IMG/VR virus record: IMGVR_UViG_3300009175_000009
Coordinates: 1-48,523 of that record
Source of the DNA: a virus
Lineage: Duplodnaviria > Heunggongvirae > Uroviricota > Caudoviricetes
Reading direction: 5' to 3' (one strand)
Length of the DNA: 48,523 nt
In this document: in pieces, positions 25,974 to 31,710 of the stretch
How positions within the stretch are numbered: the first letter of the stretch is position 1
Layout: each line of letters starts with the position of its first letter
Notes under the pieces: model-generated
The model's input: only the letters and a program-made list of their open reading frames with translations
The model's database searches: none
What the model was told of the DNA's origin: nothing
Translations under genes and position numbers: made by a program

Positions 25974-26282
25974 GCTTACCGTTCCTGCGGCCCTTGCCTG
26001 AGTGAGGTGAAGGCCCGACAAGCGAGGTGCGAAGTACAAGCAATACCGGCTCCGTCCCCCGACGCCAAGATCGAGGGCACGAGGCCGCAGGAGCGAACGG
26101 TCCTTAGAACGCGGGGTAAAACCTGCGGGTCAGGTCTTACGGGAGTAAGACCGCAGCGGTTCGATTCCGCAGGGATCACCTCAGAAACCGAACTGGCTCG
26201 AAAATCATGGCTGGGCAACACTCGCGCGTGAGCCCACGGGTTCCTGCGGCCCCAAGAGCAGTTCGGTGGATTCACAGCGAAT

Positions 26283-29344: not shown

Positions 29345-29418
29345 CGCGGAGTGGAGCAGTCCGGTAGCTCATGAGATTCATAATCTCAAGGTCGCAGGTT
29401 CAAATCCTGTCTCCGCCA
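29345..29418 (+). tRNA. tRNA-Met(CAT) with initiator-like body; CCA not encoded
   Basis: Complete cloverleaf: acceptor CGCGGAG/CTCCGCC (C1xC72 mismatch), D stem GAGC/GCTC, anticodon arm TGAGA-TTCATAA-TCTCA, T arm GCAGG-TTCAAAT-CCTGT. Confidence 0.92.
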
Positions 29419-29496
29419 CTCGTAGCCATCAGGCTAGGTTAGGTCGCCCGCACGAACGCCGACAGCGTGCGGGACGGCAGCAGATTGTCGGCAACC

Positions 29497-29872
29497 GGGG
29501 GCGAATTGGATTCGACCGGGCAGCTAGAAGATTGAGTTGCGTGTCGTGGTTGGTCAGCAGGCCACGTTAATAGCCGACCAAAAACTTACTTGCCAAAAAC
29601 AAGTTCGAGAAGGCTCCGGCCTTCGCCCTCGTGGCCTAATAACCACGAGCCGACTGCGAACCCATCCGAGAGGTTCAAAAGCCGGCTGTAAACTCGGATC
29701 GTTCACGGTCGCTGCTGGTCACGCCGTGGATTAAAAATGCTACCGGCTGGTCGAACGACAACCCTGTTGATCCGGGGATCGCGAGACGACAGCTTGCAAA
29801 TAGGATCGACTACACACGTAGACGCTTGATCGGAAATGTCGCGGGACGCGGGTTCGATCCCCGCCGCCTCCA
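29497..29872 (+). ncRNA. ssrA: tmRNA; predicted tag (A)AKNKFEKAPAFALVA
   Basis: 5' GGGGGCGAATTGGATTCGAC; 3' GCGGGTTCGATCCCCGCCGCCTCCA; G3.U wobble in the acceptor stem; tag ORF 29592-29639 ends TAA TAA. Confidence 0.93.
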
Positions 29873-29945
29873 CTAGGCCGACTGCACGCCGGGACTACAT
29901 CTACCATGAACGAAGATGTCTCGGCAAACACCTCGTCGGCCTTTT

Positions 29946-30893
29946 CTACTTCCAGATGGTAGCCGCCTCGGCGGCGTTCATCTCGCCGGGATCCTTGCGG
30001 TGTTCCGGAACCAGAGCCGTGCGGTTCTCGTGGATAAGCTGACCGGCCAGGACCAGAGCCTGCTCCTCCGCCGCCTGGTCGAGGAGAATCACCACCTCAT
30101 CGAAACGCTCCGACAGCTTGTTGAGGATGACCTTCTGCTGCGGCGTGATCGATGTGGTTTGCACCGATACCGCGTAGCATCCGCGAGGAGCGTAGACGTT
30201 CAGGTTCAGGGCATCGAACGGGCCTTCGTTCACGATGAGCTTTCGTCCGCCGTGTTTGGCCTGCGGCAGTCCGAAGATGCCCCACTTTGGCTGCGGGCCG
30301 GCGGGCTCGGCTTTGTACCGCAGTCGGGACTTGGTGATCGCCCTGCCGTAGAACGCGATCATGTTTCCGGCCCAGTCGTGAATCGGGAACAGGATGCGAT
30401 TGGCATGTTTGCCGGTTACGGCACACTTCAGGTCATACTCGTCGCAGGCCCAGGCGATATCGCGGTTGGGTATCTTGCGGTCATAACGCATGTAATCCCA
30501 ATAGTCCCGCGTGACGCCTTCAGGGTGTATTATGCGGGCTTCCTGCGGCCAATTGATCACCTTGACCGATTTCTTTACGGGATGCTCCTTGGCCATGAAC
30601 GCGGCGACCGCGGCTTCGTAACCTTCCAGCGGCGGACCTTCATCTTCGCCGATACTGCGGGCCGCCTCGTGGCCGGCGAGCAGTGAGATGATCCGTTGGA
30701 AACTCATGCCGTGGTTTTTGTTACGCCAGCAGAAGTAACCGCCGTCACGCAAACTGATATTACCGTGTTCGCTGCGGTCGGCTTCGCCACACATCGGGCA
30801 GTGGATGCTTACGCAGCCTCGCTTCGTGTTCTTGCCGTCCGTGACGTACTTAATACGGAAGCGGTCGAGGATTTCTTTAACGTTCATGATCAC
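29946..30893 (-). CDS. DNA primase (zinc-binding + TOPRIM)
   Basis: HCPMCG...YFCW, RILFPIHD...AFYGRAI, IVNEGPFDAL, ILLDQ. Confidence 0.85.
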   Translation of the reverse strand: MIMNVKEILDRFRIKYVTDGKNTKRGCVSIHCPMCGEADRSEHGNISLRDGGYFCWRNKNHGMSFQRIISLLAGHEAARSIGEDEGPPLEGYEAAVAAFMAKEHPVKKSVKVINWPQEARIIHPEGVTRDYWDYMRYDRKIPNRDIAWACDEYDLKCAVTGKHANRILFPIHDWAGNMIAFYGRAITKSRLRYKAEPAGPQPKWGIFGLPQAKHGGRKLIVNEGPFDALNLNVYAPRGCYAVSVQTTSITPQQKVILNKLSERFDEVVILLDQAAEEQALVLAGQLIHENRTALVPEHRKDPGEMNAAEAATIWK

Positions 30894-30899
30894 CTCATG

Positions 30900-31023
30900 T
30901 GGAGCATACGGGGATCGAACCCGCAGGCGAATGGCTACGCTGCGAGTCGGTCGCCTCCATTGCGCGGTAGCGACCGCCGCCCTGCGTAACTATTCAGCAT
31001 CCGCGCCGCGTGCGGCATGCCCC
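30900..31023 (-). ncRNA. Ala-identity tRNA-like RNA lacking a normal anticodon loop
   Basis: GGGGCAT/ATGCTCC-A acceptor stem with G3.U70 and A73; T arm GCGGG-TTCGATC-CCCGT; long irregular hairpin in place of the anticodon arm. Confidence 0.6.
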
Positions 31024-31284
31024 GTACCACAAATAGACACGGCAAAGCTCATCGTGTCTAGTCGTTAGCTCGGCCTGCGGTGGCCAGTAATAGTGCCAGG
31101 GGCGGATCTTCGGATCCGACGCCACACCGCGGCGGCGACGCCCGCCCATAGCGGACGTGGGCAGCCGCGGGCCGGGCGTTTGATAACCTCGCGTTGACGG
31201 GAGGTGGCAACCTCGCTATGTTGGGAAGTTGCTAACGAAATACCGATAAACGAGGAACAGGCGACCCGCGACGGTCGCCTGTTC

Positions 31285-31710
31285 ATGGCTTGCAGCAATC
31301 GGAGGTTGCTAGTGCCTACTCCTCATCCTAACACGATCATACAGGACGGTCAAGGGCCACATCGTACTATCTCGGAATCTACACGACGGCTTATTCTAGC
31401 CATCGATCAGCAGCTACTCGACGATCTTAGCAAGCGTGACCTTCTGCTCATGCTGGAGTGCTTTTATCACACGGACAAAGATACGTGCCGGTTCCCGATG
31501 CGTAATCGGGACGTCATGCAGCGGTTTCGATGGAGCCACCAGGAGACTCTACACCACATCTGGGAGCTTGAGCGTCGCTTTATCATCATGTGTAGAACAG
31601 GGTGTCGGTGGGAGTTCCTACCCGACCGTGAATACTACAGCGAACTGGTAGTCGAATTAAATAAAACACGGAAACGCGTCAGTCCGCGTTCTCGCAACGG
31701 GGAATTGTAG
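31285..31710 (+). CDS. Hypothetical protein, possible winged-HTH replication protein
   Basis: Start uncertain: the GTG at 31204 lies inside a sigma70-like promoter. Ends RNGEL. Confidence 0.5.
   Translation: MACSNRRLLVPTPHPNTIIQDGQGPHRTISESTRRLILAIDQQLLDDLSKRDLLLMLECFYHTDKDTCRFPMRNRDVMQRFRWSHQETLHHIWELERRFIIMCRTGCRWEFLPDREYYSELVVELNKTRKRVSPRSRNGEL

Follow-up and report, generated by a model that had tools for sequence, protein, structure and literature searches.

An anticodon-less, tRNA-Ala-like RNA encoded directly ahead of the primase gene of a lake-water phage

The question raised by this locus is what a short sequence with the acceptor end of an alanine tRNA, and with no anticodon loop, is doing directly ahead of a phage primase gene. 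The window, that is, the whole 48,523-nt stretch of DNA analyzed here, belongs to an IMG/VR virus record of 112.5 kb that comes from lake water, and the minus strand of the window reads from 31023 to 30900 as a 124-nt tRNA-like RNA (positions within the element, p, are 31024 minus the window coordinate). The original prediction described this element as an alanine-identity, tmRNA-style tRNA-like domain without a message. Judged from its sequence, a homologue, a covariance model, and predicted folds, the element is a real, selected tRNA-like RNA and more than a product of chance, with an acceptor, a T arm, a D-like loop containing GG, and a four-way junction. RNAs of this kind are already known from the "TLD only" RNA of mycobacteriophage DS6A and are recurrent in phages; what is new here is a variant of greater size and different construction whose place ahead of the primase gene is defined.

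In the protein collection, just two clades are close to the window's primase (P0001), and members of the clade with 65% primase identity (P0029; L009 and L077 to L080, referred to below as the L009 lineage) carry a homologous element directly upstream of their primase gene. This homologue, found in the search for covariation that the original prediction had called for, is, like the window's element, exactly 124 nt long despite indels of 1, 1, and 2 nt between the two. All 28 modeled pairs are standard in both sequences, with four double and four single compensations and none broken; in a control in which partners were slid by 1 to 3 columns, only 29 to 45% of cells paired. In a shuffle test, 31 of 500 shuffles reached the observed values, and the covariation is thin and its statistics modest because only two distinct sequences are compared. 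Identity between the two elements is 66% overall, being complete in the acceptor and A73 (15 of 15 positions), 80% in the D-like arm, and 58% in the long arm, while the fourfold-type third positions of the adjacent primase gene are only 48% identical between the same lineages. The retained pairs, together with an identity above that of these sites, argue that the RNA is under selection. Among the public sequencing runs listed as containing the sequence, none was an RNA run; four DNA runs gave no informative variants.

The 7-bp acceptor stem pairs GGGGCAU (31017 to 31023, with G3 at 31021) with AUGCUCC, whose strand, followed by the discriminator A73 at 30900, occupies 30900 to 30907 and places U70 at 30904; the G3.U70 pair and discriminator A that had been read from this stem are both in the sequence, and the acceptor is that of a tRNA-Ala. 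The bacterial alanine identity set consists of A73, G2-C71, G3.U70, and G4-C69 (PMC9976931), and all four determinants are present, in keeping with the alanine identity proposed originally. The minor alanine determinant G20 has no counterpart in the element. No CCA is encoded at the 3' end of the 124 nt, which is not unusual here, since the phage's own tRNA-Met and tmRNA likewise lack an encoded CCA.

The T arm (30908 to 30924; GCGGG/UUCGAUC/CCCGU) has four firm pairs plus a G.U, forming a 5-bp stem with a TPsiC-type 7-nt loop; the loop is invariant, and two stem pairs covary, both being doubly compensated in the L009 lineage. Its 16-mer, GCGGGTTCGATCCCCG, does recur, as had been noticed at the outset, in the nearby phage tmRNA at 29497 to 29875. 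In place of a D arm, a tiny GCCG-CACG-CGGC hairpin had been proposed. The comparison instead favors a D-like arm at 31001 to 31015, in which a 4-bp stem (CCGC/GCGG) carries the 7-nt loop ACGCGGC with its GG and in which one compensating change turns C12-G20 into U-A in the L009 lineage. The linker between acceptor and D-like arm is 1 nt in the window and 0 nt in L009, versus 2 nt in tRNA.

Where an anticodon arm would stand, both lineages have a long irregular helix (30928 to 30996; p28 to p96), GC-rich in the window, so that the absence of an anticodon loop holds in each: there is no 5-bp stem with a 7-nt loop and an NGC anticodon. The roughly 80-nt helix of the original prediction is real as a long helix, but it spans about 69 nt, and its base is better drawn as an anticodon-stem-like UGAAU/AUUCG than as GCGGA/TTCGC. 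All 13 of its modeled pairs are kept, with one double and four single compensations. A conserved hairpin stands at its far end, where the apical block CGCAAUGGAG (30955 to 30964), a pentaloop CGCAA closed by CCG/UGG, does not differ between the lineages, in contrast to the wholly different stems around it. A role as a decoy for anticodon nucleases, one of the functions first considered, is unlikely because the RNA has no anticodon loop. Measured against bacterial tRNA-Ala, then, the element shares the first five acceptor pairs and A73 of the identity set, the T loop UUCGAUC, and the GG of the D loop, and it differs in having 69 nt for a 17-nt anticodon arm, a shortened 8-9 linker, and no equivalent of G20.

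The comparative cloverleaf-type fold lies 3 to 5 kcal/mol above the minimum free energy in both sequences, and the cloverleaf is not formed in plain minimum-free-energy folds. Two registers are possible for the junction of the long helix, and with this ambiguity and a linker of 0 to 1 nt instead of 2, an L-shape is not assured.

Standard finders pass over the element. ARAGORN, one of the programs named in the original prediction, calls only a tRNA-Met (29345 to 29419) and the tmRNA (29497 to 29875) in the window, and Rfam yields no match on the element, RF00005 included, either at the gathering score or at an E value of ≤10. Relaxing ARAGORN to allow introns produced 284 calls and was uninformative. 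The called tRNA-Met(CAU), on the plus strand, has a C1xC72 mismatch atop its acceptor that is reminiscent of initiator tRNAs, and it lacks the three G-C pairs of the initiator anticodon stem. Elsewhere in the window, a noncoding plus-strand stretch at 26100 to 26185 contains a T-loop-like hairpin, GCGG-TTCGATT-CCGC, after an 8-bp hairpin.

A joint covariance model built on the two homologues (window and L009 lineage) scores 141 bits on each of these two source elements, and nothing else scored with it, genuine tRNA-Ala genes and the DS6A RNA included, exceeds 29 bits. Scans of viral contigs with exact and with degenerate patterns gave no further homologues, one of them returning only a tRNA-Tyr-like gene. 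A metagenome scan for the same acceptor gave 54 matches, none homologous (≤29 bits versus 141), and a genome scan gave 108 chance matches, of which 80 were retrieved as loci and none fitted the joint model. Upstream of the distant primase relatives (≤37% identity), no such element was found.

That the RNA carries no message, as first proposed, agrees with the comparison: there is no reading frame conserved between the lineages, a shared one being ruled out by the indels of 1, 1, and 2 nt, and the tag frame, resume codon, and stop of a full tmRNA are absent from the element. A mini-message was considered and rejected; one frame in the window ends in RLAA-stop, like the end of a tmRNA tag, and this is a coincidence, since the L009 homologue has no stop in any frame. 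An attP site or a tRNA 3' fragment was likewise rejected, both acceptor strands being present and the neighbors being replication genes.

Could the element nonetheless be a decoding tRNA-Ala with an intron in its anticodon loop, or a tRNA-Ala pseudogene decaying around an insertion? The arms of genuine tRNA-Ala genes align one by one with those of the joint model, their anticodon loop falling at the long insert, and CUCGCAG (window) and CGAGCAG (L009) in the 3' half of the arm can be read as NGC anticodon contexts. These candidate NGC bases, however, are paired in both folds and lie 12 to 13 bp from the junction instead of 5. The insert measures about 50 nt, well below the size of a group I intron, and to our knowledge bacteria do not have the archaeal splicing endonuclease. 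Decay of a canonical tRNA-Ala, which the original prediction had named as one of the findings that would overturn it, is contradicted by the compensating changes, the identical length, and the slower-than-synonymous divergence. We consider either version of this explanation very improbable.

The comparison with tmRNA requires more discussion, as there is a phage precedent. Mycobacteriophage DS6A encodes a "TLD only" tmRNA, a tRNA-like domain without the tag-coding part, and an RNA of this type is reported to inhibit tmRNA in Escherichia coli (PMC4131195, PMC11915505). We located the DS6A RNA as an 80-nt sequence between gp33 and the DNA polymerase III gene gp34 (L071:28478-28557). Both RNAs are phage encoded, combine a G3.U70/A73 acceptor with a T arm, have neither an anticodon nor a tag frame, and occupy a gap between genes immediately ahead of one for DNA replication. 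The DS6A RNA has a stemless tmRNA-type D-loop and a short closed helix, whereas the element, at 124 nt, has a D-like stem-loop and a 69-nt conserved arm and stands beside a full tmRNA; scored at 24.5 bits, the two show no detectable homology.

By analogy with DS6A, the element might be a tmRNA reduced to its tRNA-like domain that binds SmpB and either inhibits host trans-translation or acts in rescue without a tag. [quoted passage not shown] However, a reduced, stemless D-loop is the defining trait of the tmRNA tRNA-like domain (PMC3968760), and the element has a predicted D-like stem with a compensating change where the SmpB-bound D-loop is stemless, an assignment that is provisional, as it is drawn from two sequences. 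The GGAUUCGAC-type D-loop of the phage tmRNA and of DS6A is missing, as are pseudoknots, and the tmRNA covariance models (RF00023 and its clan) do not match the element even at an E value of ≤10. A sponge for SmpB would act against the phage's own complete tmRNA as well, and searches of the 112.5-kb record, which is possibly a fragment of a phage of about 190 kb, detected no gene for SmpB. The "tmRNA-style" label is thus not borne out, the element fitting the tmRNA tRNA-like domain poorly, and we regard a tmRNA without coding sequence as improbable.

Other tRNA-like RNAs offer more limited parallels. The eukaryotic mascRNA (from MALAT1) and the tRNA-like RNA of Arabidopsis GUT15 (PMC6152437), for which we know of no report of charging, are unrelated to the element in sequence. 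They are tRNA-shaped modules of longer transcripts that are released by tRNA-processing enzymes, as would be expected here, and provide an analogy of mechanism only. The bacterial Y RNA YrlA (PMC4201824) also has a tRNA-like module inside it. The YrlA RNA reportedly ends in a Ro-binding stem, with its acceptor-like stem closed, and its topology is thus the opposite of that of the element, whose ends form the acceptor stem; there is in addition no TROVE match in the record, and the element does not belong with the bacterial Y RNAs.

A promoter-like motif, GTGTCTAT, lies on the minus strand at 31033 to 31040, 9 nt upstream of G1, and the corresponding motif of the L009 lineage (GTGTCTGT) has the same spacing. 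Its divergent partner, GTGTCTAG (31054 to 31061), serves the plus-strand genes and forms with the minus-strand copy an inverted repeat upstream of the element; what had been considered an upstream terminator hairpin is really these two back-to-back copies of the promoter-like GTGTCT. Plus-strand copies of GTGTCT(G/A)G number 31, mostly 15 to 35 nt before start codons, where about 7 would be expected per strand. On the other side, the 3' end does abut the ribosome-binding site as first described: the Shine-Dalgarno sequence GAGGUG (30896 to 30891) begins 4 nt after A73 and is followed by the primase ATG (30887 to 30885). The gene, at 29946 to 30887 on the minus strand, encodes a 313-amino-acid DnaG-type primase and is the coding gene of the transcription unit; an ENA contig of 192.5 kb carries an identical primase. 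From A73 to the ATG, neither length (12 nt in the window versus 24 nt in L009) nor sequence is conserved.

The second close primase clade, with 72% identity (P0024; L073 to L076), lacks the element, so that at least one lineage has a primase gene with no such RNA ahead of it and the element is dispensable at least for the element-free sister phage. There, a promoter-like motif, GTGTCTGG, stands only 7 nt from the primase ATG (L073:2470-2503), from which the primase mRNA of this lineage may be leaderless or nearly so. The pairwise primase identities of 72, 65, and 66% group the element-free lineage with the window, which makes loss of the element the simpler history. From the motif 9 nt upstream of G1 in two lineages and 7 nt from the ATG in the third, transcription probably begins no more than a few bases from G1. 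In a variant of the 72% lineage, an HNH endonuclease gene, in place of the element, lies directly upstream of the primase start, overlaps it, and replaces the promoter region (L081:1-489 and L011:1-200). The DnaB helicase of this sister lineage (L073:1-1259) has 949 amino acids and an intein with a LAGLIDADG domain, and the window-type DnaB has 518 and no intein. The divergent transcript in the window has a long leader (31062 to 31450, plus strand) that shares blocks with L073 and is absent from the L009 lineage; it contains a sigma-70-like TTGACG-17-TATGTT at 31194 to 31222 and a 26-nt, perfectly conserved hairpin core at about 31257 to 31282.

The location between the promoter-like motif and the primase Shine-Dalgarno sequence in both lineages is also what would be expected if the element were purely a cis-acting 5' leader that sets the 5' end, stability, or translation of the primase mRNA, any released RNA being functionless. 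In one variant of this explanation, the fold would be a tRNA-punctuation or processing signal, kept on the mRNA or cut from it. The apparently leaderless sister lineage indicates that the leader region is evolutionarily plastic, and neither a trans partner nor an antisense target was found in the 112.5-kb record, where antisense matches are only chance-level 11- to 13-mers. Yet processing enzymes read shape and not alanine identity, and it is the acceptor and A73 that match at 15 of 15 positions where other stems have changed; the distal loop block CGCAAUGGAG, remote from every cleavage site, is conserved too; the spacer from A73 to the ATG is conserved in neither length nor sequence; and no pairing that sequesters the Shine-Dalgarno sequence is common to both lineages. 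An exclusively cis-acting leader, which takes in the processing signal of the original prediction, is in our view a serious if less likely rival, with more to be said for it than for a reduced tmRNA.

The explanation that we prefer, and hold tentatively at somewhat short of an even chance, is a small RNA derived from tRNA-Ala that is released, can be charged with alanine, does not decode, and acts as a mimic off the decoding path. Driven by the GTGTCT motif, transcription would start a few bases ahead of G1. The stack of acceptor and T arm, with an elbow of D and T loops, would make the transcript a substrate of RNase P, which would cut at the 5' end; a tRNA 3' endonuclease would cleave behind A73, and the 3' end would be finished by the CCA-adding enzyme. 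The expected product is a free RNA of about 127 nt, and the 3' cut would leave the primase mRNA with a short Shine-Dalgarno leader. Charging by host AlaRS would be expected under the established identity rules, as the acceptor carries the alanine identity set and AlaRS needs no anticodon; from these sequence features, the RNA is probably both cut out and chargeable with alanine. The 69-nt arm, which the D stem would hold in the geometry of a tRNA, should prevent decoding and probably also entry into the ribosomal A site, which points to a role away from the decoding path.

For such a released RNA, the most likely role would be that of a mimic that occupies, or is recognized by, a factor whose target is the top half of tRNA-Ala or of tmRNA, and the conserved long arm with its CGCAA loop may bind a second partner. 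Against this explanation, the same 112.5-kb record, which may be incomplete, offers no gene that points to such a partner: besides SmpB, searches for a CCA-adding enzyme, AlaRS, FemAB, Fem-like GNAT proteins, and L/F-transferase gave no match, and neither did one for Ro60/TROVE. A more specific and rather improbable proposal is that the conserved 69-nt arm presents the alanylated or uncharged acceptor end to a nonribosomal partner and that the RNA, expressed with the replication genes, represents a new functional class of phage RNA. If this were true, an immune toxin directed against the acceptor ends of tRNAs would be a possible partner, or the RNA could take part in an aminoacyl-transfer reaction; the class would be distinct from tmRNA fragments, and phages would repeatedly have evolved alanine-chargeable, nondecoding tRNA mimics.

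Several unannotated, anticodon-less G3.U70 RNAs inside phage tRNA arrays also emerged from the metagenome scan for the same acceptor. One family of 125 to 132 nt (L021:1213-1337, L033:4177-4304, L047:3649-3778, L052:8012-8141, L056, and L063) has an encoded CCA and the invariant core GCAGAGATTTATCATCAAGCTAG and lies in large phage tRNA arrays; its members are not called by ARAGORN and show no anticodon arm in constrained folds. Another, of 111 nt, occurs in rumen phages (L018:4583-4693, L066:1553-1663, L044, and L067) that also encode a full tmRNA on the same strand, at a distance of about 3 kb, so that a tmRNA accompanies an alanine mimic there as it does in the window. Apart from these anticodon-less RNAs, a phage tRNA array contains a 115-nt tRNA-Tyr(GUA)-like gene (L012:4819-4933; also L037 and L064) not called by ARAGORN, with a G3.U70 acceptor and about 36 extra nucleotides between acceptor and D arm; the L012 array has 21 tRNAs and no called tRNA-Tyr. 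A G3.U70 pair in tRNA-Tyr has been reported to confer alanine acceptance (PMC9976931). Finally, tRNA-Ala(GGC)-like genes (L020, L025, L028:2662-2773, L029, and L060) have an insertion of about 40 nt after the anticodon arm that consists of two near-identical hairpins (ATCCTTCGGAT).

Alanyl-tRNA synthetase reads only the acceptor stem, and for this reason alanine alone among tRNA identities can outlast the anticodon. Phages appear to have made repeated use of this anticodon-free identity, in DS6A and in several unannotated families, and standard tRNA and tmRNA finders overlook such alanine mimics. The only established function of phage RNAs of this kind is the inhibition of tmRNA by one construct in E. 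coli. The element described here offers three handles: its transcriptional position is defined, with a promoter-like motif immediately ahead of it and the primase gene immediately behind; the sister phages, some with the element and some lacking it, make up a natural presence/absence series; and its conserved long arm should have a partner that can be found.
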